Assembly: GCF_041886205.1 (NCBI RefSeq)
Contig: NZ_CP169029.1
DNA from: Escherichia coli
Lineage (GTDB): Bacteria > Pseudomonadota > Gammaproteobacteria > Enterobacterales > Enterobacteriaceae
Strand: one strand, 5' to 3'
Length of the DNA: 64,000 nt
The translations under genes and the position numbers were made by a program. Within the stretch, counting starts at the first letter, position 1, and every line of letters begins with the position of its first letter. The notes beneath the pieces are model-generated. The model searched no databases and was not told where the DNA came from. It saw only the letters and a list, made by a program, of their open reading frames with translations. Below are positions 21,823 through 35,715 of this stretch, piece after piece.

Positions 21823-23268
21823 ATGGAACTTCGAAATAAGAAATTAACCCATGACGAATTCATGACCGAGCGGCAACAGGTACTGAAAACCTGGGAAACC
21901 GGCAAGGATGTTGAAAACTTTGAAGATGGCGTTAAATACCAACAAACCATCCCTGAGCATAAACGCTTCTCTCTTGCGCTGCTGAAAGCAGACAAGGAAG
22001 GTAAAACCCTTAGCCAACCGCGCGCAGGTGTGGCGCTGATGGACGAACACATCGAACTACTGAAAACACTACAAGAAGAGTGCGATCTGCTGCCAAGCAC
22101 CATCGATGCATATACCCGTCTGAATCGGTACGAAGAAGCGGCTGTAGGGATTAAAAAATCCATCGAAGCCGGAACCTCTAAACTGAACGGTTTACCGGTA
22201 GTTAACCACGGCGTCGCAGCTTGCCGTCGCCTCACCGAAACCCTGCAAAAACCGCTACAGATCCGCCACGGCACGCCAGATGCGCGTCTGCTGGCTGAAA
22301 TCTCGATGTCCAGCGGCTTTACCAGTTACGAAGGCGGCGGCATTTCCTACAACATTCCGTATGCCAAACGCGTAACGCTGGAAAAATCGATCCGCGACTG
22401 GCAGTACTGCGACCGTTTAATGGGGATGTACGAAGAACACGGGATCCGCATCAACCGCGAACCATTTGGCCCACTAACGGGTACGCTGATCCCGCCGTTT
22501 ATCTCGCACTCTATCGCCATAATCGAAGGATTGCTGGCACTGGAACAGGGTGTGAAATCTATCACCGTTGGTTATGGCCAGGTCGGCAGCCTGACGCAGG
22601 ATGTTGCGGCGATCCAGTCTCTGCGTGAACTTGCACACGAATATTTTCAGAGCTATGGCTATACCGACTATGAATTGAGTACCGTGTTTCACCAGTGGAT
22701 GGGCGGCTTTCCGGAAGACGAATCGAAAGCGTTCGCTATTATCTCCTGGGGCGCAGCCGTCGCGGGGATGTCTGGTGCCACCAAAGTCATCACCAAAAGT
22801 CCGCACGAAGCCTGGGGCATCCCGACTGCCGCTGCCAACATTCAAGGGCTAAAAGCCTCCCGCCAGATGCTCAACATGGTCAATGAGCAGAAATTCCCGC
22901 CGTGCCCTGCGGTTGAACTGGAAATTGAACTGATTAAGAGCGAGGTTCGCGCGGTACTGAATAAAGTGTTTGAACTGGGTAATGGTGATATTGCGCGCGG
23001 TACGGTGCTGGCATTTGAAGCGGGCGTACTGGATGTGCCGTTTGCGCCAGCCGCCTGCAACGCGGGCAAAATTCTTCCGGTCCGTGACAACACCGGCGCG
23101 ATACGCGTACTGGAAGCCGGAGCCGTTCCATTGCCAAAAGATATTCTCGACCTCCACCACGATTACGTTGCGGAACGCGCACGCTTTGAAGGACGCCAAC
23201 CGACATTCCAGATGGTTGTAGATGACATCAATGCTGTATCCCACAGTAAATTAATAGGAAGACCATAA
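21823..23268 (+). CDS. glmE: glutamate mutase epsilon subunit (methylaspartate mutase E chain)
   Basis: 481 aa; long blocks resemble remembered clostridial GlmE (PRAGVALMDEHIELL, REPFGPLTGTL, VFHQWMGGFPEDESKAF). Confidence 0.9.
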   Translation: MELRNKKLTHDEFMTERQQVLKTWETGKDVENFEDGVKYQQTIPEHKRFSLALLKADKEGKTLSQPRAGVALMDEHIELLKTLQEECDLLPSTIDAYTRLNRYEEAAVGIKKSIEAGTSKLNGLPVVNHGVAACRRLTETLQKPLQIRHGTPDARLLAEISMSSGFTSYEGGGISYNIPYAKRVTLEKSIRDWQYCDRLMGMYEEHGIRINREPFGPLTGTLIPPFISHSIAIIEGLLALEQGVKSITVGYGQVGSLTQDVAAIQSLRELAHEYFQSYGYTDYELSTVFHQWMGGFPEDESKAFAIISWGAAVAGMSGATKVITKSPHEAWGIPTAAANIQGLKASRQMLNMVNEQKFPPCPAVELEIELIKSEVRAVLNKVFELGNGDIARGTVLAFEAGVLDVPFAPAACNAGKILPVRDNTGAIRVLEAGAVPLPKDILDLHHDYVAERARFEGRQPTFQMVVDDINAVSHSKLIGRP

Positions 23269-24509
23269 TGAAAATAAAACAGGCTCTGTTCACCGCTGGC
23301 TACTCCTCATTCTATTTCGATGACCAGCAGGCGATAAAAAACGGAGCGGGTCATGACGGCTTTTTTTATACCGGGGAGCCGGTAACACAGGGGTTTAACG
23401 CCGTTCGTCAGGCCGGGGAGTGCGTATCGGTACAGTTGATTCTGGAAAACGGCGCGGTCGCCGTAGGTGACTGTGCTACCGTACAGTATTCCGGGGCAGG
23501 TGGTCGCGATCCACTGTTCCTCGCAGAGCACTTTATTCCGTTCCTCAACGATCATATCAAGCCATTACTGGTAGGCCGCGATGTGGATGCTTTCCTGCCG
23601 AATGCCCGTTTCTTCGACAAATTGCGTATTGACGGCAACTTGCTGCATACCGCCGTGCGCTACGGATTATCACAGGCGCTGCTTGATGCTACCGCGCTGG
23701 CAACCGGCCGTCTGAAAACTGAAGTGGTCTGTGATGAATGGCAGTTGCCACGCGTGGCGGAATCCATTCCATTATTTGGTCAGAGCGGCGACGATCGATA
23801 TATCGCCGTCGATAAGATGATCCTTAAAGGCATCGACGTGCTGCCCCATGCGCTGATTAATAACGTCGAGGAGAAGCTGGGCTTTAAAGGTGAAAAACTG
23901 CGCGAATATGTCCGCTGGCTGTCGGATCGCATTCTGAGCAAGCGCACCAGCGCACGCTACCACCCTACCCTGCACATCGATGTATACGGCACTATCGGTC
24001 TGATCTTCGATATGGATCCGCTTCGCTGTGCGCAATACATCGCCAGCCTGGAAACAGAAGCGCAAGGCCTGCCGCTCTACATTGAAGGGCCGGTCGATGC
24101 CGGTAACAAGCCCGATCAAATTCGCCTGCTGACCGCGATTACCAAAGAGCTGACGCGCCTCGGTTCTGGCGTGAAAATTGTGGCCGATGAATGGTGTAAC
24201 ACTTACCAGGATATTGTTGATTTCACCGATGCCGCCAGTTGCCACATGGTGCAAATCAAAACCCCGGATCTGGGCAGTATTCACAACATCGTCGATGCGG
24301 TTCTTTACTGCAACAGCCACAGCATGGAAGCATACCAGGGCGGCACCTGCAATGAAACTGATGTCAGTGCCCGCACCTGTGTCCACGTCGCCCTAGCCGC
24401 TCGCCCTATGCGTATGCTGGTAAAACCAGGGATGGGCTTTGACGAAGGCCTCGATATCGTCTTCAACGAAATGAATCGTACTATCGCGCTGTTGCAGGCT
24501 AAGGATTAA
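23268..24509 (+). CDS. mal: 3-methylaspartate ammonia-lyase (beta-methylaspartase)
   Basis: 413 aa enolase-superfamily protein; motifs GAGHDGF, VQYSGAGGRDPLF, ADEWCNT, HMVQIKTPDLG match methylaspartase; start overlaps glmE stop. Confidence 0.9.
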   Translation: MKIKQALFTAGYSSFYFDDQQAIKNGAGHDGFFYTGEPVTQGFNAVRQAGECVSVQLILENGAVAVGDCATVQYSGAGGRDPLFLAEHFIPFLNDHIKPLLVGRDVDAFLPNARFFDKLRIDGNLLHTAVRYGLSQALLDATALATGRLKTEVVCDEWQLPRVAESIPLFGQSGDDRYIAVDKMILKGIDVLPHALINNVEEKLGFKGEKLREYVRWLSDRILSKRTSARYHPTLHIDVYGTIGLIFDMDPLRCAQYIASLETEAQGLPLYIEGPVDAGNKPDQIRLLTAITKELTRLGSGVKIVADEWCNTYQDIVDFTDAASCHMVQIKTPDLGSIHNIVDAVLYCNSHSMEAYQGGTCNETDVSARTCVHVALAARPMRMLVKPGMGFDEGLDIVFNEMNRTIALLQAKD

Positions 24510-24512
24510 CAA

Positions 24513-25883
24513 ATGGCTCGTTCTTTTAAAGTCTTATCGCCAACGGCAATCCTCGGGTATGGATTCCCGGAAGAGAGCTTCCGCAAAGCGATGGCAGAAT
24601 CGCCTGATCTGATCGCCGTTGATGCAGGCTCTTCCGATCCTGGCCCCCACTACCTCGGAGCGGGCAAACCGTTTACCGATCGCGCAGGGGTCAAGCGCGA
24701 TCTGCGCTATATGATCACCGCAGGCGTGCAAAATAATATACCGGTGGTGATCGGAACGGCCGGCGGTTCTGGTGCCGCACCACACCTGGAGTGGTGCCGA
24801 GAAATAATTCATGAGATTGCCCGGGAAGAGCTCCTCTCGTTCTCGATGGCACTGATCCCGGCAGACGTTGACAAAGCCATCGTCCACCAGGCGCTGGATA
24901 ACGGCAAAATCACGGCGCTGGATTTTGTCCCGCCGTTAACCCACGACGCGATTGACGAAAGTACGTATATCGTCGCGCAAATGGGCATCGAACCCTTCCA
25001 GCGGGCGCTGAAAGAAGGCGCGCAAGTGGTGCTGGGCGGGCGCGCTTACGACCCGGCCTGCTTTGCTGCGCTCCCGATCATGCAAGGCTTTGATGAAGGT
25101 CTGGCGCTGCATTGTGGGAAAATCCTTGAATGCGCGGCAATCGCCGCAACGCCCGGCTCAGGCTCTGACTGTGCGATGGGCATCATTGATGACAACGGCT
25201 TTACGCTGAAGACATTTAATCCGAAGCGTAAATTTACCGAAACGTCAGCAGCTGCACACACACTGTATGAGAAATCCGATCCCTACTTCCTGCCAGGACC
25301 TGGCGGCGTGTTGAACCTGAAAGGCTGCACATTTAAAGCAGTCAATGACGGCGAAGTGTACGTCAGCGGTTCCAAGCATGAAGAAACGCCGTATGCCCTG
25401 AAACTGGAAGGTGCGCGACGGGTGGGCTTCCGCTGTCTGACCATCGCCGGAACGCGCGACCCGATCATGATCGCCGGGATCGATAAAATCATCGATGAAG
25501 TCAAAACCAGCGTTTCGCGTAACCTGTCGCTAGACGATGACAGCATTCGCATCAATTTCCACCTGTACGGCAAAAACGGGGTGATGGGCGACCATGAACC
25601 GATGCAAACTGCCGGGCATGAGCTGGGGATTGTCCTTGATGTAGTTGCACCGACCCAGGAAATTGCCAATAGTGTTTGCTCGCTGGTGCGCTCTACCATG
25701 CTGCACTACGGCTATGAAAACCGCATCGCTACCGCAGGCAACCTGGCGTTCCCGTTCTCTCCTTCTGATATCCAGGGCGGGCCGGTATACGAATTTTCCA
25801 TATATCACCTGATTGAAGCCAACGACGCTCTGCGTTTTGATTTCCATATTGAACAGGTGACGCCAGAAGGAGTTCAGGCATGA
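24513..25883 (+). CDS. conserved protein of unknown function (possibly DUF1446/AtuA-like family)
   Basis: 456 aa ORF 3 bp after mal; soluble; family assignment is from memory of motif pattern only and is tentative. Confidence 0.7.
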   Translation: MARSFKVLSPTAILGYGFPEESFRKAMAESPDLIAVDAGSSDPGPHYLGAGKPFTDRAGVKRDLRYMITAGVQNNIPVVIGTAGGSGAAPHLEWCREIIHEIAREELLSFSMALIPADVDKAIVHQALDNGKITALDFVPPLTHDAIDESTYIVAQMGIEPFQRALKEGAQVVLGGRAYDPACFAALPIMQGFDEGLALHCGKILECAAIAATPGSGSDCAMGIIDDNGFTLKTFNPKRKFTETSAAAHTLYEKSDPYFLPGPGGVLNLKGCTFKAVNDGEVYVSGSKHEETPYALKLEGARRVGFRCLTIAGTRDPIMIAGIDKIIDEVKTSVSRNLSLDDDSIRINFHLYGKNGVMGDHEPMQTAGHELGIVLDVVAPTQEIANSVCSLVRSTMLHYGYENRIATAGNLAFPFSPSDIQGGPVYEFSIYHLIEANDALRFDFHIEQVTPEGVQA

Positions 25884-26197
25884 AACAGTCAATTGTCTCA
25901 CTGGCGCAAGTCATTCGTTCGAAAAATGCCGGACCTTACGAACTGGTTTTAGATATTTTATTTAAAACTAAAGAAAACTATGAGCGAGTTAAATCATCAG
26001 GGCAATTAACCCCAGAACTGATTGCGCGCTTATATCATGTTGAACCTGACTTTATTCATCGTATTGTCTGGTTTGATCCTTCTAACGCAGTAAAAATCGT
26101 CATGCCACGAGATATTATCTCCGGGAATGTAGGTGACAATGATGTCTATGGTGCACAGCAACATGCACCTTTATTAAATATGAGTTTCGATTTGTAA
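25880..26197 (+). CDS. small conserved protein of unknown function (possibly DUF4387-like partner)
   Basis: 105 aa ORF whose start overlaps the previous stop (ATGA), i.e. translationally coupled. Confidence 0.65.
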   Translation: MKQSIVSLAQVIRSKNAGPYELVLDILFKTKENYERVKSSGQLTPELIARLYHVEPDFIHRIVWFDPSNAVKIVMPRDIISGNVGDNDVYGAQQHAPLLNMSFDL

Positions 26198-26280
26198 AAA
26201 TCCGAACACTTTTAGCCAACTGACATCCCGTCACTTATTGCAGTTCAACACTTCAGCTATTTGTAAGGTTGTAATAGCAG

Positions 26281-26313
26281 GTAGATGCCTGAATCTCTAT
26301 TCAGGCATCTACT
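26281..26313 (+). promoter_or_regulatory. perfect 13-bp inverted repeat with 6-nt loop (gtagatgcctgaa-tctcta-ttcaggcatctac) in the intergenic gap before the transporter gene
   Basis: Perfect palindrome between the small ORF and the transporter; only a weak T-rich tract downstream, so it may be an attenuator/processing site or a protein-binding site rather than a strong terminator. Confidence 0.45.
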
Positions 26314-26357
26314 TCTCCTGATTCTGATTTATCGCCGTGCACCTGATGGAGGAAAAA

Positions 26358-27638
26358 ATGAAGAAAATAAGTTTAACCACGATGATTCTTTTGGCGCTGG
26401 TACTTGGAATGATTATCGGCGTAGTGCTCAATAACACTGCTTCACCGGAAACAGCAAAACTCTATGCGCAAGAAATATCGATATTCACGACGATTTTCTT
26501 ACGACTGATAAAAATGATTATCGCTCCGCTAGTGGTTTCTACCCTGGTGGTAGGTATTGCTAAAATGGGCGATGCCAAAGCCCTTGGCCGTATTTTTTCT
26601 AAAACACTCTTTTTATTTATTTGCGCCTCATTGCTATCAATTGCCTTAGGCTTGATAACGGTAAATTTCTTCATGCCAGGTACAGGAATTAATTTTGTTG
26701 CACACGGTGCCGAAACCACTGGAGTGGTCGCGTCAGAACCCTTCACGCTAAAAGTATTTATTTCGCATGCTTTCCCCACCAGCATTGTCGATGCCATGGC
26801 GCACAATGAAATTTTGCAAATCGTGGTGTTCTCAATTTTCCTCGGCTGTAGCCTGACGGCGATTGGCGAGAAAGGCAGCGCCATCGTTCACGCCTTAGAT
26901 TCGCTGGCACATGCCATGTTAAAGCTCACTGGCTACGTCATGCTCTTCGCTCCCCTGACCGTATTCGCCGCTATTTCAGCATTGATTGCTGAACGAGGAC
27001 TGGCAGTTATGGTGAGCGCCGGGATCTTTATGGGTGAATTTTATTTCACCATGTTATTACTTTGGGTGCTGCTTATCGGTCTGGCCATCGTTTATGTCGG
27101 CCCCTGCATCAGACGCCTGACCCGCGCCCTTTCGGAACCCGCCCTGCTGGCATTTACCACATCCAGTTCTGAAGCGGCTTTTCCGGGAACGCTTGAAAAA
27201 CTGGAGCAATTTGGCGTTTCCCCCAAAATTGCCAGCTTTGTCTTACCCATTGGCTACTCATTTAATCTCGTTGGATCAATGGCCTACTGCTCCTTCGCCA
27301 CCGTTTTCATCGCCCAGGCCTGCAATATCCATTTATCCATCGGTGAGCAAATCACCATGCTGTTGATCCTGATGTTGACCTCGAAAGGAATGGCTGGCGT
27401 ACCACGCGCCTCAATGGTGGTTATCGCCGCCACGCTCAACCAGTTCAATATTCCGGAAGCGGGGCTGATCTTGCTGATGGGCGTTGATCCGTTCCTTGAT
27501 ATGGGGCGTTCCGCGACAAACGTCATGAGCAACGCAATGGGCGCTGCGATGGTGAGTCGGTGGGAAGGCGAACATTTCGGCGAGGGCTGTCGGGGTAAAG
27601 CATTAAAATCCAATGAATCGAACGTTGCTCTGCCCTGA
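26358..27638 (+). CDS. dicarboxylate/amino acid:cation symporter (DAACS family, GltP/DctA-like)
   Basis: About 426 aa multi-pass membrane protein with GltP-like motifs (KMIIAPLVVSTLVVGIAKMGD, TSKGMAGVP); start chosen at ATG 26358 after GGAGGA. Confidence 0.88.
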   Translation: MKKISLTTMILLALVLGMIIGVVLNNTASPETAKLYAQEISIFTTIFLRLIKMIIAPLVVSTLVVGIAKMGDAKALGRIFSKTLFLFICASLLSIALGLITVNFFMPGTGINFVAHGAETTGVVASEPFTLKVFISHAFPTSIVDAMAHNEILQIVVFSIFLGCSLTAIGEKGSAIVHALDSLAHAMLKLTGYVMLFAPLTVFAAISALIAERGLAVMVSAGIFMGEFYFTMLLLWVLLIGLAIVYVGPCIRRLTRALSEPALLAFTTSSSEAAFPGTLEKLEQFGVSPKIASFVLPIGYSFNLVGSMAYCSFATVFIAQACNIHLSIGEQITMLLILMLTSKGMAGVPRASMVVIAATLNQFNIPEAGLILLMGVDPFLDMGRSATNVMSNAMGAAMVSRWEGEHFGEGCRGKALKSNESNVALP

Positions 27639-27745
27639 GGGGGATCTTAAGCAATCAGAAGCCAATGACTACGTATTTTTATAAGCCGGATCATGAAGTT
27701 AGACGGCAATTAAGTAACACTAACGTTTAAGGTGAAAAGTGAAAT

Positions 27746-29398
27746 ATGTCCAAACCTTTTATCTGGCAAGAACCGTTTCTACAAAATAAAGACGGTACAG
27801 AATATACATTAATTAGCGATCAACATATTACAGTAACGGAATTAGACGGCGAAGAAGTGATAAAAATCGCTCCTGAAGCATTAACGCTGCTTGCCCGGCA
27901 GGCATTTTATGAAGCCTCTTTTTTCTTACGTTCCGCTCATTTGCAACAGGTCGCCAGCATTCTTAACGATCCGCAGGCCAGTAGTAATGATAAATACGTT
28001 GCGTTGCAGTTATTACGTAATGCTGAAGTCTCAGCAAAAGGGGTATTACCCAACTGTCAGGATACCGGCACCGCAACTATTGTTGCCAGTAAAGGGCAAC
28101 AGATATGGACCGGAGGTAACGACGCCGAAGCCTTAAGCAAAGGCATTTACACCACTTTTCAGGAAAATAATCTGCGCTTTTCACAAAATGCGCCGCTGGA
28201 TATGTATACCGAAGTCAATACGCAAACCAATCTCCCGGCGCAGATTGATATCAGCGCTGTCGCTGGTAATGAGTACCATTTTCTCTGTGTTAATAAAGGG
28301 GGCGGCTCTGCCAATAAAGCCGCGCTTTATCAGGAAACCAAATCCTTATTGCAACCAGAAAAACTGACCGCATTTTTAATCGAAAAAATGAAATCGCTGG
28401 GCACCGCTGCCTGCCCGTCTTATCACATCGCCTTTGTCGTCGGAGGGCTTTCAGCCGATCAAACCTTAAAAGTTGCCAAGCTGGCTTCTACGAAATATTT
28501 CGACAATTTGCCCACCAGCGGAAACGAGCAGGGACAAGCATTCCGTGATATTGAGCTGGAAAAAGCGTTGCTCGAGGCCAGTCAGCAATTTGGTATTGGT
28601 GCGCAATTTGGGGGTAAATATTTCGCTCATGATATTCGCGTCATTCGTCTGCCGCGTCACGGTGGCTCTTGCCCGATAGCTATGGCGCTCTCCTGTTCAG
28701 CCGATCGCAATATCAAAGCAAAAATTAACAAACACGGTATCTGGCTGGAAAAACTCGAACACAATCCGGGGCAATATATTCCAGCCTCACTGCGGGAAGA
28801 AAATCACGCGCAACATGTACAACTGGATCTAAACCGTCCGTTGCGTGACGTGATGCAGGATCTCGCCAGATTACCGGTAGGCACCCGCGTGTCGTTAAGT
28901 GGTCCCATCGTAGTGGCGCGCGATATCGCCCACGCCAAAATAAAAGCGCGGCTGGATAGCGGCGAACCGATGCCGGATTACCTGAAGCATCATATTGTCT
29001 ATTACGCTGGCCCGGCGAAAACACCGGAGAACATGGCCTGCGGTTCACTGGGTCCAACCACGGGCGGTCGAATGGACGGTTATGTCGATACCTTCCAGGC
29101 GGCTGGCGGCAGTCTGGTGATGTTATCGAAAGGTAACCGCAGCCAGCAGGTCACCGATGCCTGTCACAAACATGGCGGCTTCAATCTGGGAAGTATTGGC
29201 GGTGCAGCTGCGTTACTGGCGCAAGAATATGTCAAAAGTCTGCGTTGCCTGGAATACCCGGAGCTGGGTATGGAAGCGGTGTGGATGATGGAAGTGGAAA
29301 ATCTGCCCGCATTCATCCTGGTAGATGATAAAGGCAATAATTTCTTTAGTCAGTTTGAGCAGCAACACCGCTGCGCCAGTTGCCCTGCGGGACATTAA
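27746..29398 (+). CDS. fumD: class I fumarate hydratase family protein (FumA/FumB paralogue; likely mesaconase/fumarase)
   Basis: 550 aa, the size of Fe-S class I fumarases with Cys ligands; located with glutamate mutase and methylaspartase, as remembered for FumD of E. coli O157:H7. Confidence 0.8.
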
Positions 29399-29407
29399 GG
29401 AAAATGA

Positions 29408-30010
29408 ATGGAAGCGCGAATTTCAACTGAACGGCATGTGCAGCGCCAACAGAAATTGAAGGAACAGGTCGATACGCGCGTCGCGGCGGCGATAGAGAAA
29501 AAAGGGATCTTGATTGTTTTCACCGGCAACGGCAAAGGGAAATCCACTGCCGCGTTTGGTACTGTGACGCGCGCGGTGGGTCATGGCAAAACGGTGGGGG
29601 TTGCGCAGTACATCAAGGGGCAATGGGACAACGGCGAATACAACCTTCTCCAGCCGCTGGGGGTTGAGTTTCATATTATGGGAACCGGTTTTACCTGGGA
29701 GACACAGAACCGGCAAGCGGATATCGACGCGGCGAAAGAGGTCTGGTCGGAAAGCAAACGGATGCTGGCTGACAAGCGTTACGACTTAGTGGTGCTTGAT
29801 GAGCTGACCTATATGCTGGCTTACCATTATCTGGATACCGAAGAAGTGATCGCTTCTCTGCAAAACCGCCCGGCACAACAAAGTGTCATTGTCACCGGAC
29901 GCGGTTGCCACAGTCAGATATTAAAAATGGCGGATACGGTAAGCGAAATCCGTCCCGTCAAACATGCTTTTGATAACGGCATTCAGGCCCAGCCGGGTAT
30001 CGACTGGTAA
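29408..30010 (+). CDS. cob(I)alamin adenosyltransferase (CobA/BtuR family) paralogue
   Basis: 200 aa with P-loop GNGKGKSTAAFG and strong similarity along its length to remembered E. coli BtuR; last gene of the operon. Confidence 0.88.
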   Translation: MEARISTERHVQRQQKLKEQVDTRVAAAIEKKGILIVFTGNGKGKSTAAFGTVTRAVGHGKTVGVAQYIKGQWDNGEYNLLQPLGVEFHIMGTGFTWETQNRQADIDAAKEVWSESKRMLADKRYDLVVLDELTYMLAYHYLDTEEVIASLQNRPAQQSVIVTGRGCHSQILKMADTVSEIRPVKHAFDNGIQAQPGIDW

Positions 30011-30043
30011 TAACTGCGCCTGGCATCCCGCCAGGCGCAGGTT

Positions 30044-30949
30044 TTACATCTCCTGCGGTACGACCGATTTCACCAGCAACCATTCACGAAATTGCTGCAA
30101 GTGCGGTGAGTCAGACTTCTCTTCCTGCCACGTCATAATAAAACGATTACCGGTACGAATAGGCACATCACAGGGGATCACCATATCGCCACTATCCAAA
30201 TCATGTTGAATAGCGAACCGTGGTAACAGCGCCACGCCGAGATTAGAGCGCACGGCGGCAATCAGCATTGAAAGCAAATCGAAACGTGGTCCGTTGTTGA
30301 CCAGCGGACTGCTAACGCCAGATAAAGCAAACCACTCTTCCCAGCCAGTAATACGGGTGCTTTGATGCAGAAGTGGTAACTCAGTAAGCAGTTCTGCCAC
30401 TGACAGTTTTTGATCGGACATTGCAAGCAAACTGCCACTGCATACCGGCAAAATCTCCTCTTCAAAGAGATATTCTACTTCCGCCCAGGGCGCGCAAAAA
30501 TTTTCGCGCATAATGACAGCATCGTACTCCCGATTAAGAAAATCGCCGTTATTAGCTAAAGAATGAATATTAACAATAATATCGGGATGTAACTTTGTGA
30601 ATTCATGTAAATTTGGGATTAACCAGTGGGTACTAAAAGTAGGATTAACGGCAAGTTCAATAACCTGAACCGTAGGCTGCCAGGTCATAATGGTATTGGT
30701 ATCGCGTTCCAGCTTATTTAATGTTTCTTTTACTATCCCCAGGTAATACTTCCCTGCATCATTAAGAAAAATGCGTTTTTTAGAGTGTGAAAATAATGGA
30801 GTATGTAAAAATTCCTCCAGCGCACTTACTTGTCTGAATACAGCACTTTGGGTTAACGCTAACTCCTCTGCCGCTCTGGTATAACTTTCATGACGTGCGA
30901 CGACCTCAAAAGTCACCAGCAGTTCCGTTTTAGGTATTTTCCCTCGCAT
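30044..30949 (-). CDS. LysR-family transcriptional regulator
   Basis: 301 aa; N-terminal HTH (ESYTRAAEELALTQSAVFRQVSALEEFL) and LysR substrate-binding domain; convergent with the catabolic operon, divergent from the RtcB-like gene. Confidence 0.88.
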   Translation of the reverse strand: MRGKIPKTELLVTFEVVARHESYTRAAEELALTQSAVFRQVSALEEFLHTPLFSHSKKRIFLNDAGKYYLGIVKETLNKLERDTNTIMTWQPTVQVIELAVNPTFSTHWLIPNLHEFTKLHPDIIVNIHSLANNGDFLNREYDAVIMRENFCAPWAEVEYLFEEEILPVCSGSLLAMSDQKLSVAELLTELPLLHQSTRITGWEEWFALSGVSSPLVNNGPRFDLLSMLIAAVRSNLGVALLPRFAIQHDLDSGDMVIPCDVPIRTGNRFIMTWQEEKSDSPHLQQFREWLLVKSVVPQEM

Positions 30950-31539
30950 AATGCCTTCCGTGAAAAAAATAACAATTCAAAAATTATTTTATAAAAAACA
31001 GTAGCACTAATGAATATCATAATTCAAATAAACAAACCAGTCAGCTATATGTCCAACCAGAAAAATAAAGTGACAATAATCCTAAAACAGTAATTTCACC
31101 TCAGTTATCCACATGCAATACTTTAAAAATATTATTGCAAGAATATTATTCATATACATGAATATACTCTAAATAAGTCGAGTTGCAGGAAGGGAACAAA
31201 TAATGAATCTCCAGAAGATTACATAAGTAAGTGACCTGGGTGAGCGAACATCGATGCAGCACATGCAACTTGAATTATGACAAGTATACAATGATAAATT
31301 TAGATACCCTATGTTATATATTATCTATGTCCGGTTAAATTGAATGAGTCATGGCCTTAAAAGACTTCGCAAAAGATTATTTCTCTTTAACAATAAGCCA
31401 GATTTACCACTTGTAAAAATTGCTATCGCCACATACACTACGCGCGTTTTCTTTCCCTTTTGCTGGCTGCTGACCGGAAAGACAAAATTACCCTCGCAAT
31501 ACAGGGGGGTGTTTAACGTCTATATTTCAGGATAGCGTT

Positions 31540-32937
31540 ATGCATCATCTTTCAAGGTTTGATAAAGCCTTTCTGCGCAAAGGGATCCAACTTTCCCGCG
31601 CCAACAATATTGTTTCATTATCTCGTCCATCAGGTGCCAGTGCCCGCGTACTGTTGCCGGACGAACTGCCACTGGAAGAAAAAGCAGTGACACAACTGCT
31701 TGATTTTGCAGAAGTGAAGCTACCAGACCATCCAGGTTATGTACGCCAGACGTGCGCGACGCCAGATTTTCACCCCGGCAATGGCGTCCCCGTTGGCGCG
31801 GTGGTGGCCTCAACGCCGGATTTAGTCATTCCCGCCGCCATCGGCACCGATATTTCTTGCGGCATGCGGCTGCTAACGACTGGATTAACACTTGAACAAG
31901 CCGAAGCGCATAAAGACGTCATCACTCAGCGGTTAACGCAAGTGCTACTGCAAAATGAGCGCGATGTTCCGTTATCCGCACAGGCGTTCACCGCGCTTTT
32001 TGATGGCGGACCGGCAGATTGCGTGTCGACCTTGCCATCAGCAGGTCTCTGGACACGCATGAATATCCCCCGAATGGTACAAGAGATTGACCGCTGCATT
32101 GGGCTTAACGAGCATAACAGTCACTCGCGTTATGCCCCACCCGCCCTGCTGGCAACGGACCGCGCATTACTCCGCGACCCTTGTCTGGGTACGCCGGGTT
32201 CAGGTAATCATTTTATTGAACTTCAGGTAGTTGATAGCGTGATCGATCGCCATGTAGCCTGGCAACAAGGGCTGAAAACGGGCGATATCGTGGTGATGAT
32301 CCACAGTGGATCGCGAGATGTTGGCTTTTACGTCGGAAGACGCTGGATGGATCGCGCCCGTGCTGAATGGCCCATCGGACATAAACATCCACAAAGCGGG
32401 TTATATGGTCTGGCAGGCGGACTGGCGGAGGAATATCTACAAGCGATGGGAATGGCGGCGCGTTACGCATGGTTAAATCGCGTGACCATTGCGGAAATGG
32501 TTCGCGTATGTTTTGCCGATTTATTTCATCAGGATGATTCACATCTGGTGGTGGATGTGCCGCATAACATCATCCTTCGCGAACATGAAATGAATATTCA
32601 TCGCAAAGGTGCAACACCGGCACACGCGGGCGCTCTGGCATTAATCCCCGGTTCAATGGGCGATTATACGTGGCTTGCGGTAGGTTGCGGCAACCCGGAG
32701 TGGTTGTGGTCATGCAGTCACGGAGCAGGACGCAGCCAGCGTCGGCAGGCCATGCGCTCACGCGCGACTGAAGAGTCAACGCTGCCGTGGCAATGCGTCA
32801 CATTGCGTGAAGAACGACGTCTTGAAGAAGCGCCAGCTGCTTATAAAGATATTGCTCCGGTTATCGAAGCCCAACAAGAAGCTGGATTGATTCAGCCTGC
32901 GGTCAGATTTCGACCGTGGTTAACGTTTAAGGGGTAA
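31540..32937 (+). CDS. RtcB-family RNA ligase paralogue with ~55 aa N-terminal extension
   Basis: 465 aa; RtcB motifs DFHPGNG, IPAAIGTDISCGMR, GSGNHFIELQ, HSGSRDVG, IPGSMGDY, SCSHGAGR, AYKDI line up with remembered E. coli RtcB. Confidence 0.85.
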   Translation: MHHLSRFDKAFLRKGIQLSRANNIVSLSRPSGASARVLLPDELPLEEKAVTQLLDFAEVKLPDHPGYVRQTCATPDFHPGNGVPVGAVVASTPDLVIPAAIGTDISCGMRLLTTGLTLEQAEAHKDVITQRLTQVLLQNERDVPLSAQAFTALFDGGPADCVSTLPSAGLWTRMNIPRMVQEIDRCIGLNEHNSHSRYAPPALLATDRALLRDPCLGTPGSGNHFIELQVVDSVIDRHVAWQQGLKTGDIVVMIHSGSRDVGFYVGRRWMDRARAEWPIGHKHPQSGLYGLAGGLAEEYLQAMGMAARYAWLNRVTIAEMVRVCFADLFHQDDSHLVVDVPHNIILREHEMNIHRKGATPAHAGALALIPGSMGDYTWLAVGCGNPEWLWSCSHGAGRSQRRQAMRSRATEESTLPWQCVTLREERRLEEAPAAYKDIAPVIEAQQEAGLIQPAVRFRPWLTFKG

Positions 32938-33029
32938 CTGAAATGATAAATGGCCTGCGGTTCTCACGCAGGTCAAATCTGGTATCTGCGTAAGCTAACA
33001 AACTTGTTTATCAACAATTTCAGGCCATC

Positions 33030-33058
33030 CGAAGATGGCCTGAAATTATTGCCCCCCT
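33030..33058. terminator. hairpin downstream of mngB (ttcaggccatc-cgaa-gatggcctgaa)
   Basis: Perfect 11-bp stem directly after the mngB stop, flanked by A/T tracts; it also lies just past the right end of the insertion. Confidence 0.55.
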
Positions 33059-33081
33059 TAGATACACTTTTAGCGCAATAA

Positions 33082-35715
33082 TCAGCCAAGGCGGTAGATA
33101 AATGTCCGTGACTGCCCCGGTAAAAATGCCCCCAGTTCCTTTAAATTATCTCTTTCCGCTGTGCTGATGCTTTCATCCATCATCGTTTGCGTACATGAAA
33201 TCACCTCACGACTGAACGCGACAGTTGCCTCACAGGTTGTCGATTCTGCCGGATTAAACAGTCGCAATACCACTTCTTGCCGGTCTTCCGCTTTTTTAAG
33301 AGCGCTAATCAGGCATCCCACAGGAGGCATTTTCAGCAAGCTATGGCTTTCCGGCACATTGAATCCGGCTTTATTTAACTTCATCGCATCCCATGGGATT
33401 TTGTTGTAACACTGTACTGGCGTCAGCCATGCACGCGCCTGCTGGGCTACACCGGCGGTCGCAGGCGTACCTGTATAACTAAATAAGCTCAGACGGCAGC
33501 TAAAGGAGCCACGTAATTGTGAATCGGGCACCGGCATTTTTATGCCTGAAGGACGTCCAGGCCTTAAGAGCAGATCTTCTTTGCCCAGTAAGCCCACGCC
33601 ACGCAGCAACGTAATGGCAAAGGTTTTCTTCTCTTCACCGATGACTTCGAATTCACGTAGCCCTTCGCTAAAGACAGCCAGACCGTTACGCCCTTCCTGT
33701 AAGGCAGCATAGTTGAGCATATTCCATACCGGAACAGGCGCTTCTTTCCAGCCTTCTTGTTGCCAGACATCCATCGCACTGTCGCTCACCGGGCGCGTTA
33801 GTGAACCAAACTGGGTATCGGCCAGAACACTGTCGGTGTTAAAAGGTGTAGGGACCAGGACGCGAAGGCGATGATCGTCAGCCTGGTTATCAAGGTTGAT
33901 ATCCACATCAATACGTCTGCTGTTATCACTCAGAGTGACAACCAACTCCACCCCTACTCTGCCAGTGGATTGCCGGGCGCTGCGTTCTGACAAATTGAGC
34001 GGCACTGCCATGTCATAGCGGATAACAGCCCTGCTCTGCCAGGCTTCATGAATAATATCGCATTGCGGTTTCGCGTTCGCCGCGGTAATTACCCACTCTT
34101 CTTTTGCGGGTGAATAGTCATATTCATCACCATCATCAGAGCTTTCTTCAATTTGCAACACCCGGTCATAGCGCACACCGCTATCTTTATCTACCAGTTG
34201 TAGCGTTCCATCCTCATTGAGCGCAATTTGCCAGAAAGCATTTTCCAGTATCCCTTCAGCGTTACTTTTTGCCGCAATCACGTTGCCAGGCTGATTCGCT
34301 TCGATATAAAGCGTGCGATAGCCCATAGAAGGGACAATCTGGTTGATCTGTATATCAAACTCCATAAAGGGATCGTAATTACCGTAATGAACGATTTGCC
34401 GATCGATTAGGCCAGGATCGATCTCACGGGCATGGCGAATAAAATACGGCACAGGATGACCGCGATCGTCCCGTAAATTAAACTGGCTGGCGCGCAGGCG
34501 CACAGTGGTGTTAATCACTTCTTCTCGCGGCCAGGGCATCAGGTTAAACAGGACGAGTTTGTCGGCGTCGCTCTGCGGCATGTTGTCGGCGATTTTACGC
34601 ATATAGAAACGAATCAGATTATCCGCCATGTCTTCAGCCAGTTCGAAGCGGGCGACGATTTCGCGATGAACTTTGTCACTGCAACAACAACCGATGCTGT
34701 CGTGGGCATGATTTTTTAAGATCTCTTTCCACATTTTCTCCAGCAAGCCGTGGTGGTATTCAAAACCCAACGTCCAGGCCAGCGTTGCCAGCGGTTCCAG
34801 CAGATTAACAATCTTATTTTCAATACGTGCGTGGGCAACTTTGATATCCATGCGCGTGGAACCGATGGTGCGATGTACGCGCATATATTTGCCATCAATA
34901 AATTCACCTTTCAGGGTCGCCAGACTTTCACGCTGCGCTTCAATCTGCTCGAATACCTCTTCAAAGCGGCTCATCACAAACTTTCGTTGAGGATAAATTT
35001 CGCGAAGTTTCTCCATCACTTCGAAGATATTTTGCTGCAATGGCATCTGGTCATGACCATTCGGCAGCAAAATCTCTTTGGTTACTGACGCTTTTTCCAG
35101 CACGTCAAAATAGCTGTCGAGGCGTTTACGTAATCCGTCTTCGTCCGCAGGTAAGTACTTACCGATGGCATAACCCAACGGCAGCACCTGCGCCGTCACT
35201 TCGCTACCGTCACTGCTTTGCCACAAAAACTCGGTTTTATCCGTACCGTGGCGCTCAGAACATCCGCGCCAGAACATGGTGCGGGTAATGCCAAATCCAT
35301 TGTAGATATGCGGCAGTTGCCCGGACATGCCAAAGGAATCCGGTAAATAACCTATTTTCATCGGCTCGCCAAACGCGAGGCAGTCACGCATTCCGTACAT
35401 CAGATTACGGACGATGGATTCCGCAGAAACAATCGTGGTATCGGTCTGGGTATACCAAGGGCCGATAATCAACTTGCCGGCTTCTACCAGTTTCTTCACG
35501 CGGTCTTTGTTTTCCGGTTTCACCGCGAAATAATCTTCGAGGATCGCCGTTTGCCCGTCGAGTACGTAATATTTGTATTCGTTGTCCTGTTCCAGTCGGC
35601 ACAGGATCTCTTCCATATTATTGACCAGCAGAATGCGTGACTCTTCGGTGGTGAAATACCACTCCCGATCCCAATGCATATGCGGGGTGATGTGAACGCG
35701 AGATACCGCTTTCAT
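33082..35715 (-). CDS. mngB: mannosylglycerate hydrolase (alpha-mannosidase, GH38)
   Basis: 877 aa; matches MngB. Confidence 0.9.

Follow-up and report, generated by a model that had tools for sequence, protein, structure and literature searches.

Here, we present an analysis of a translationally coupled gene pair, cmlA and cmlB, within a 64,000-nucleotide stretch of the Escherichia coli contig NZ_CP169029.1 (hereafter, the window). The two genes lie in an operon for glutamate breakdown, and we conclude that they very probably encode a heteromeric citramalate lyase that works independently of coenzyme A (CoA) and acyl carrier protein (ACP) and performs the final step of the pathway. The function as such is already in the public record; judged by sequence, the E. 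coli pair is the orthologue of an enzyme of solved structure, and it lies in the same operon as the other enterobacterial orthologues. The genes and their coupling signals are as follows (positions refer to the window).

24513..25883, + strand: cmlA, 456 amino acids (aa), ATG start; Pfam family AtuA (formerly DUF1446); assigned as citramalate lyase large subunit.
25880..26197, + strand: cmlB, 105 aa, ATG start; Pfam family DUF4387; assigned as citramalate lyase small subunit.
24501..24515, + strand: coupling signal between mal and cmlA, read from the sequence: Shine-Dalgarno motif AAGGA at 24501-24505, mal stop codon at 24507-24509, and cmlA ATG at 24513.
25867..25883, + strand: coupling signal between cmlA and cmlB, read from the sequence: Shine-Dalgarno motif AAGGAG in the 3' end of cmlA, followed by an ATGA stop/start overlap.

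CmlA is 92.3% identical over 456/456 residues (E 1.6e-292) to chain A of PDB entries 9ERQ and 9EVF, and CmlB is 84.6% identical over 104 residues (E 5e-57) to chain B of the same entries. Both entries date from October 2025 (9EVF was released on 2025-10-08), and the deposited molecule names are "Citramalate lyase, subunit A (cmlA)" and "subunit B (cmlB)". According to the entry titles, from which the ligands were taken, 9ERQ was solved with AMPPNP and citramalate and 9EVF with ADP and pyruvate; chains A and B are both present in the deposited crystals. Thereby, CmlAB is shown to be a two-chain complex that has citramalate as substrate and pyruvate as product and that binds an adenine nucleotide. 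A preliminary description of the E. coli genes, made from the sequence, had proposed that the two products act together and that they might handle a pathway intermediate, and both proposals proved correct. The E. coli proteins differ from those of Raoultella planticola at 35 (CmlA) and 16 (CmlB) positions, none of which is an invariant position, and the E. coli CmlA retains 168/168 of the subfamily-invariant columns. An AlphaFold2 model of E. coli CmlA (mean predicted local distance difference test score, pLDDT, 84) superimposes on 9evf_A with a template-modelling (TM) score of 0.92, and this fold has no other solved relative in the PDB.

In vivo data are available for the R. planticola enzyme, which, when expressed as cmlAB, splits citramalate into pyruvate and acetate (10.64898/2026.01.16.699985). 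Introduction of cmlAB lets an E. coli acetyl-CoA auxotroph grow on mesaconate, which is processed first by FumA and then by Cml, and this growth is lost after curing of the plasmid (10.64898/2026.01.16.699985). Moreover, isotope label reaches acetyl-CoA, and Acs is upregulated for "mesaconate-derived acetate" (10.64898/2026.01.16.699985). The preliminary description had regarded the biochemical function of the pair as undefined. This view has been overtaken: the pair was pointed out in the operon as early as 2015 (PMC4682846), near-identical proteins with bound citramalate and pyruvate were named CmlA and CmlB in October 2025, and the enzyme was put to functional use in the preprint of January 2026. 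A literature search yielded that preprint, which uses the enzyme, and no primary description of CmlAB.

Both reading frames are present exactly as first described, and so is the start of cmlB overlapping the stop of cmlA. The cmlB ATG (25880-25882) overlaps the cmlA TGA (25881-25883), and the AAGGAG motif (25867-25872) ends 7 nt upstream of this ATG, which substantiates the proposed translational coupling of the pair. cmlA is in turn tightly coupled to mal, with 3 nt between the mal stop codon and the cmlA start. A search with Pfam hidden Markov models supported the tentative family identities: CmlB matches DUF4387 (PF14330) with E 2.9e-39, while the match of CmlA to AtuA (PF07287) is moderate and partial (E 2.1e-18, residues 63-394). 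No NCBIfam model was found for either protein, and PADLOC gave 0 matches. The ratio of nonsynonymous to synonymous substitution rates (dN/dS) is 0.03-0.06 for cmlA and 0.04-0.10 for cmlB, and mal and glmE fall in the same range; cmlA and cmlB are genuine coding genes under strong purifying selection. Despite the translational coupling, the guanine-plus-cytosine (GC) content of cmlB is 0.38 and that of cmlA 0.55. Because this gap is systematic over 78 related loci (mean, 7 points; 7-15 points and mostly 11-14 in enterobacterial loci), we regard the low GC content of cmlB as a property of the gene family and not as a sign of separate acquisition.

The pair is part of a co-directional block that comprises glmS, glmL, glmE, mal, cmlA, cmlB, a symporter gene, fumD, and cobO. 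As the preliminary description had it, the pair is flanked by a methylaspartate ammonia-lyase gene upstream and a gene for a DctA/GltP-family symporter downstream. The remaining features of the operon are listed below.

19967..20416, + strand: glmS, methylaspartate (glutamate) mutase subunit S (NCBIfam NF002612, E 7e-76; RefSeq start).
20416..21804, + strand: glmL, mutase accessory/reactivating protein (NCBIfam TIGR01319, NF040745).
21823..23268, + strand: glmE, methylaspartate mutase subunit E (NCBIfam TIGR01503, E 4e-260).
23268..24509, + strand: mal, methylaspartate ammonia-lyase (NCBIfam TIGR01502, E 1e-162).
26280..26313, + strand: stem-loop of 15 bp downstream of cmlB, within the 160 nt that separate it from the transporter gene (RNA fold).
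26358..27638, + strand: GltP/DctA-family dicarboxylate/amino acid:cation symporter, probably for glutamate uptake (RefSeq; NCBIfam NF002461/NF008440 below the curated cut-offs).
27746..29398, + strand: fumD, class I fumarase/mesaconase that makes (S)-citramalate (NCBIfam NF011921, 1279 bits, above the cut-off).
29408..30010, + strand: cobO, cob(I)alamin adenosyltransferase for supply of adenosylcobalamin to the mutase (RefSeq annotation).
30014..30040, + strand: GC-rich, terminator-like hairpin of 11 pairs at the operon end.
30044..30949, - strand: LysR-family regulator, convergent with the operon (RefSeq annotation).

According to the proposed pathway, GlmSE, helped by GlmL and CobO, would convert glutamate to (2S,3S)-3-methylaspartate, from which Mal would form mesaconate; FumD would turn mesaconate into (S)-citramalate, and CmlAB would close the pathway by splitting (S)-citramalate between C2 and C3 into pyruvate and acetate. 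FumD from this very cluster was characterized biochemically by Kronen & Berg (PMC4682846). In the same study, E. coli O157:H7 yielded neither a citramalate lyase gene nor the corresponding activity, and the authors wrote that "the fate of (S)-citramalate ... is still unclear" (PMC4682846). No gene of the operon other than cmlA and cmlB lacks an assignment, and citramalate cleavage is the missing step; the assignment of CmlAB as citramalate lyase fits the locus because the sole unassigned function meets exactly the step that is lacking. The preliminary description had suggested an unrecognized step or, alternatively, maintenance or protection of the mutase. Rather, the pair stands for a terminal reaction that has long been known, the cleavage of (S)-citramalate to pyruvate and acetate, here catalyzed by a non-homologous enzyme.

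To describe the distribution of the pair, we used a set of 80 loci, one genome per species, in which the CmlA homologue is 56-96% identical; gene presence was scored by tblastn with the proteins of the window. The loci cover ~10 phyla and come from Enterobacterales, Rhodocyclales, Riflebacteria, Aminicenantes/Acidobacteriota, Spirochaetes, Lentisphaerae, Chloroflexi, Desulfobacterota, and Clostridia. cmlB is next to cmlA at 78 of the 80 loci. Mal is encoded at 69 of the 73 loci with enough upstream sequence, and at 66 of them directly upstream and on the same strand; GlmE is encoded at 67/80 loci. Thus, co-conservation with the glm and mal genes across genomes, which the preliminary description had named as a point to check, was found. 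A class I fumarase is encoded at 43/80 loci, and a gene for a TsaE-like/AlaX-like P-loop protein follows cmlB in most of the non-enterobacterial clusters. In Prevotella nigrescens (Bacteroidota), we observed a version of the cmlAB cluster with a two-subunit mesaconase. The LysR gene is present at 18/80 loci, which are mainly enterobacterial and include two from Rhodocyclales at 45% identity.

None of the 80 cml loci gave a tblastn match to CitD, CitE, CitF, CitC, or CitG of E. coli, to CitD, CitE, or CitF of Peptoclostridium, or to the CoA-transferase and CoA-ester lyase of Ensifer. In Peptoclostridium acidaminophilum, glmSLE-mal adjoins citXC-citDEF, and cmlAB is absent; in Ensifer adhaerens, the slot directly after mal is taken by genes for a CaiB-type CoA-transferase and a CoA-ester lyase. 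Because three unrelated modules share one slot and are mutually exclusive, they represent a non-orthologous displacement of a single step, in which CmlAB is the replacement for clostridial CitDEF and for the CoA-transferase/citramalyl-CoA lyase pair of some alpha-proteobacteria. The earlier claim that clostridial operons lack any counterpart holds only in part. The classical clusters carry the functional analogue CitDEF (PMC4682846), and, within the class Clostridia, Terrisporobacter and Oscillospiraceae carry cmlAB itself.

Beyond this subfamily, distant AtuA-family genes on annotated plasmids and chromids (31-56% identity) are in every case followed by a DUF4387 gene. Their other neighbors vary and comprise dehydrogenase and class I fumarase genes on Klebsiella plasmids, MmgE/PrpD dehydratase, tricarboxylate transporter, and LLM oxidoreductase genes in Comamonadaceae, and CoA-ligase/CoA-lyase genes in a haloarchaeon. 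The polar residues of CmlA that are invariant family-wide are D37, S40, D42, E160, R177, D180, K203, E206, C207, E253, Y294, K297, E299, D316, Y352, E370, S416, Y426, and H432, all of which are present in the E. coli protein; in CmlB, the family-wide invariants are S14, K15, N16, G18, D25, K72, R77, G82, D88, Q93, Q94, and L98. This pattern of conservation suggests one catalytic apparatus formed by both subunits, combined with variable substrate pockets. An exhaustive DUF4387 profile search of representatives gave 2138 clusters at 50% identity and also revealed fusions, while a word-indexed search with this profile returned stand-alone small proteins only. The natural fusions include AtuA-DUF4387 (P0351, 621 aa) and AtuA-DUF4387-CoA-transferase III (P0303, 1096 aa), and in P0292 (735 aa), an apparent partial duplication of the AtuA C-terminal region precedes the DUF4387 domain. 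Because the 2138-cluster search includes such fusions, we consider the AtuA/DUF4387 partnership obligate family-wide, and the fusion to a CoA-transferase hints that some family members act on CoA esters or hand over to them.

As a separate observation, Klebsiella pneumoniae IncFIB/HI1B plasmids carry an operon (L088, 6989-15048) in which a LysR gene is followed by genes for an AtuA protein 56% identical to CmlA, a DUF4387 protein, an aldehyde dehydrogenase, a short-chain dehydrogenase/reductase, an alcohol dehydrogenase, a second aldehyde dehydrogenase, and a class I fumarase. Operons of this type are present on at least 12 Klebsiella plasmids and resemble a catabolic route with a fumarase and a lyase as its terminal pair. 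In Accumulibacter (L029, also L003/L004), Shewanella (L068), and Desulfospira joergensenii (L071), we observed isolated two-gene cmlAB-like units that are 58-68% identical, and their neighbors are unrelated (rpoBC, hrpA, and RND efflux genes).

Since citramalate was captured together with AMPPNP, which cannot be hydrolysed, and pyruvate together with ADP, ATP is probably a participant in catalysis and not a passive ligand. We speculate that transient formation of an acyl phosphate activates the C4 carboxylate of citramalate; the two-carbon fragment would then leave as an acetyl-phosphate-type enolate, with acetate released in net terms. Such an intermediate would be chemically sensible: a free carboxylate does not readily give off an acetate carbanion, a difficulty that CitDEF overcomes with a thioester. 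The only low-confidence parts of the AlphaFold2 model of CmlA are three invariant loops (residues 48-54, 211-215, and 254-258), which we speculate could be mobile lids of the active site. The preprint states that pyruvate and acetate are the net products, and its Acs result suggests the same (10.64898/2026.01.16.699985). A wider model would combine several of these ideas. According to this model, ATP is a chemical participant via the acyl phosphate, and the phosphate either returns to ADP, which would make the nucleotide a cofactor in the manner of the acetyl-ACP thioester of CitDEF, or leaves as acetyl phosphate; nucleotide-assisted hydroxy-acid lyase chemistry is common to the whole AtuA/DUF4387 family, whose genes typically neighbor those for fumarase- or PrpD-type hydratases; and the TsaE-like/AlaX-like protein is an accessory factor. 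We offer this combination tentatively and consider it possible but rather less than probable as a whole. If true, nucleotide-assisted lyase chemistry would be the reaction type also of Pseudomonas AtuA and of the eukaryotic fused forms.

Several alternatives to a simple citramalate lyase that operates in E. coli have to be weighed. ATP could be a consumed co-substrate, such that (S)-citramalate and ATP give pyruvate, acetyl phosphate, and ADP. CmlAB would then be an ATP-dependent lyase and not a simple one, with acetate kinase recovering acetate and ATP or, alternatively, Pta forming acetyl-CoA. We found no ackA or pta gene near the cml loci, which is uninformative since these are housekeeping genes, and we regard ATP consumption as somewhat unlikely. 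A second concern is whether the island is silent, so that genes which function in other enterobacteria would be cryptic or idle in E. coli. With strain ATCC 700728 of this species, neither conditions for expression of the cluster nor glutamate-dependent anaerobic growth were found, and extracts had no citramalate lyase activity (PMC4682846); moreover, the island is accessory and occurs in only a minority of genomes, K-12 not among them. However, dN/dS is 0.03-0.05 even relative to the closest sampled relative, an Escherichia sp. locus (L023), the pair is preserved nearly intact in almost all carriers (see below), and all invariant residues are kept, which makes a silent island improbable in our view. 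The data from strain ATCC 700728 also weigh against the citramalate lyase assignment itself, and there are further points on this side. The activity of the E. coli pair would follow from its orthology to the R. planticola enzyme, and the assignment of CmlAB rests on PDB titles, molecule names, and one preprint that uses the enzyme as a tool and in which ATP is never mentioned (10.64898/2026.01.16.699985). In addition, four loci of the CmlA subfamily have no glm or mal genes in the available flank; for three of them (Accumulibacter, Shewanella, and Desulfospira), this flank was the full 10 kb on each side, while the fourth (L081) is a short contig. Because of these four loci, the CmlA subfamily is not strictly tied to glutamate fermentation.

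The same loci speak against an accessory role of the pair, raised in the preliminary description, in maintaining or protecting the B12-dependent glutamate mutase or another pathway enzyme. Its place in the operon, immediately behind the genes for the mutase and the methylaspartase, would fit such a role, as would a nucleotide ligand, which is shared with many chaperones. However, GlmL already serves as the mutase's own accessory protein and fills the reactivase role, and CobO is encoded as well; the crystals contain citramalate and pyruvate and not mutase ligands; cmlAB alone allows the conversion of mesaconate to acetyl-CoA in E. coli cells that lack glm genes; and distant family members lie beside fumarase or PrpD-type dehydratase genes with no mutase. 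Altogether, we consider a maintenance factor very improbable. Even less credible to us is that CmlA is a second methylaspartate ammonia-lyase or otherwise acts on methylaspartate or mesaconate, as is implied by NCBI records in which homologues from Salmonella, Riflebacteria, and Lentisphaerae (P0002, P0060, and P0072) are labeled "3-methylaspartate ammonia-lyase". CmlA and the neighboring Mal align by BLASTP with E 0.3 only, the Pfam scan of CmlA gave AtuA and neither MAAL_N/MAAL_C nor enolase-superfamily domains, and no other PDB entry has a fold related to that of CmlA. Kronen & Berg found no known basis for this label (PMC4682846), and we conclude that it is a propagated misannotation.

The window is 100% identical to E. 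coli strain wlxctx60. In E. coli, the operon lies on an accessory island of ~16 kb between cydA and mngB, which are adjacent in K-12-type genomes. Among 5426 complete E. coli genomes, 1125 (21%) carry the pair, and it is absent in K-12; in 1121 of the 1125 carriers, the alignment spans at least 80% of the pair with a nucleotide identity of at least 95%. The island varies at its right end: the match of E. coli O157:H7 stops at ~30967, after the LysR gene, while the strain analyzed here has in 30968-33081 a gene for a stand-alone RtcB-family RNA ligase (31540-32937) with no rtcA or rtcR nearby. Window positions 15000-36000 are covered to at least 80% in only 286 genomes.

At the left end, between the cydA regulatory region and glmS, there are two AT-rich open reading frames (17972-18916, GC 0.38; 18998-19480, GC 0.37), compared with a GC content of ~0.53 in the operon. 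The second is a frameshifted pseudogene in the RefSeq annotation of an identical genome. Neither has a significant NCBIfam or PADLOC family match, and both are absent from 80/80 related loci; because of this absence, we regard them as cargo of the E. coli lineage that lies outside the pathway. We also considered them as counterparts of the P-loop gene found 3' of cmlB elsewhere and rejected this for lack of similarity. The start of glmS is ambiguous: the longest open reading frame begins at 19904 (170 aa), while the NCBIfam match begins at residue 22, and the RefSeq start is 19967. An Rfam scan of window positions 17000-33200 returned nothing at E <=0.1, and no cobalamin riboswitch was detected ahead of this B12-dependent operon. 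In the spacer downstream of cmlB, the region 26195-26360 folds with a minimum free energy of -41.3 kcal/mol (z -2.85), and the stem at 26280-26313 is common to the minimum free energy and centroid structures. Only a weak U-tract lies 3' of this stem-loop, which is possibly a partial terminator or an mRNA-stabilizing hairpin; it could separate glmSLE-mal-cmlAB and gltP-fumD-cobO transcripts or stabilize the upstream mRNA.

With this assignment, the pathway hole of 2015 would be closed, and about one-fifth of E. coli strains, including O157:H7, would encode a complete route from glutamate to pyruvate and acetate, as would many other gut, oral, and environmental bacteria. Because two genes with a fold of their own do the work of a six-gene system, the enzyme is already in use in synthetic C1/C5 metabolism. 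In contrast, the RefSeq Prokaryotic Genome Annotation Pipeline (PGAP), Pfam, and NCBIfam (June 2026) still say "AtuA family", "DUF4387", or, wrongly, "3-methylaspartate ammonia-lyase". Because annotation resources lag in this way, thousands of genomes contain an unrecognized citramalate lyase. Citramalate lyase also provides the first functional anchor for the AtuA/DUF4387 family, Pseudomonas AtuA included. The remaining value of the present analysis is in this annotation gap, in what ATP does, and in the extrapolation to the family.

Among known systems, the closest is the R. planticola CmlAB itself, which is from another species; its function is documented by the PDB ligands and the preprint, and that of the E. 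coli copy would follow by orthology. The functional counterpart is the citramalate lyase CitDEF with CitC, CitX, and CitG (Clostridium tetanomorphum type, EC 4.1.3.22), which catalyzes the same net reaction at the same place in the pathway. It is encoded in the glm-mal gene cluster of Peptoclostridium and clostridia (PMC4682846), as cmlAB is in E. coli. However, the two enzymes have no relationship in sequence or fold, and neither CmlA nor CmlB has an NCBIfam or Pfam match to the Cit families. CitDEF depends on an acetyl-thioester cycle, on three maturation enzymes, and on an ACP whose prosthetic group is phosphoribosyl-dephospho-CoA. CmlAB does without all of these and binds an adenine nucleotide instead; two genes thereby substitute for a six-gene ACP-dependent machine, with a fold that has no other solved relative. 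The CaiB-type transferase and CoA-ester lyase of Ensifer likewise take citramalate to pyruvate and a two-carbon unit, and their genes have the same position after mal as cmlAB. In contrast to CmlAB, this route is CoA dependent and yields acetyl-CoA, and its enzymes belong to the CoA_transf_3 and HpcH/CitE-like families, which are unrelated to CmlAB.

Pseudomonas AtuA, which is encoded in the atu cluster for acyclic terpene utilization and is the namesake of PF07287, belongs to the same Pfam family as CmlA. The relationship is at the family level only, and AtuA is not an orthologue of CmlA; none of the atu genes (for the geranyl-CoA carboxylase AtuC/F, AtuD, AtuE, and others) is in the annotated neighborhood. 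To our knowledge, the function of AtuA in terpene catabolism has never been established. One step of the Atu/Liu pathway is formally analogous to the cleavage of citramalate: 3-hydroxy-3-isohexenylglutaryl-CoA, a tertiary 3-hydroxy acid, is cleaved with release of acetate. Finally, the isocitrate lyase/phosphoenolpyruvate mutase superfamily, with its isocitrate, methylisocitrate, and 2,3-dimethylmalate lyases, carries out a CoA-independent retro-aldol cleavage of hydroxy-polycarboxylates in which a carboxylate alpha-carbanion is expelled, and thus provides a mechanistic precedent for CmlAB.

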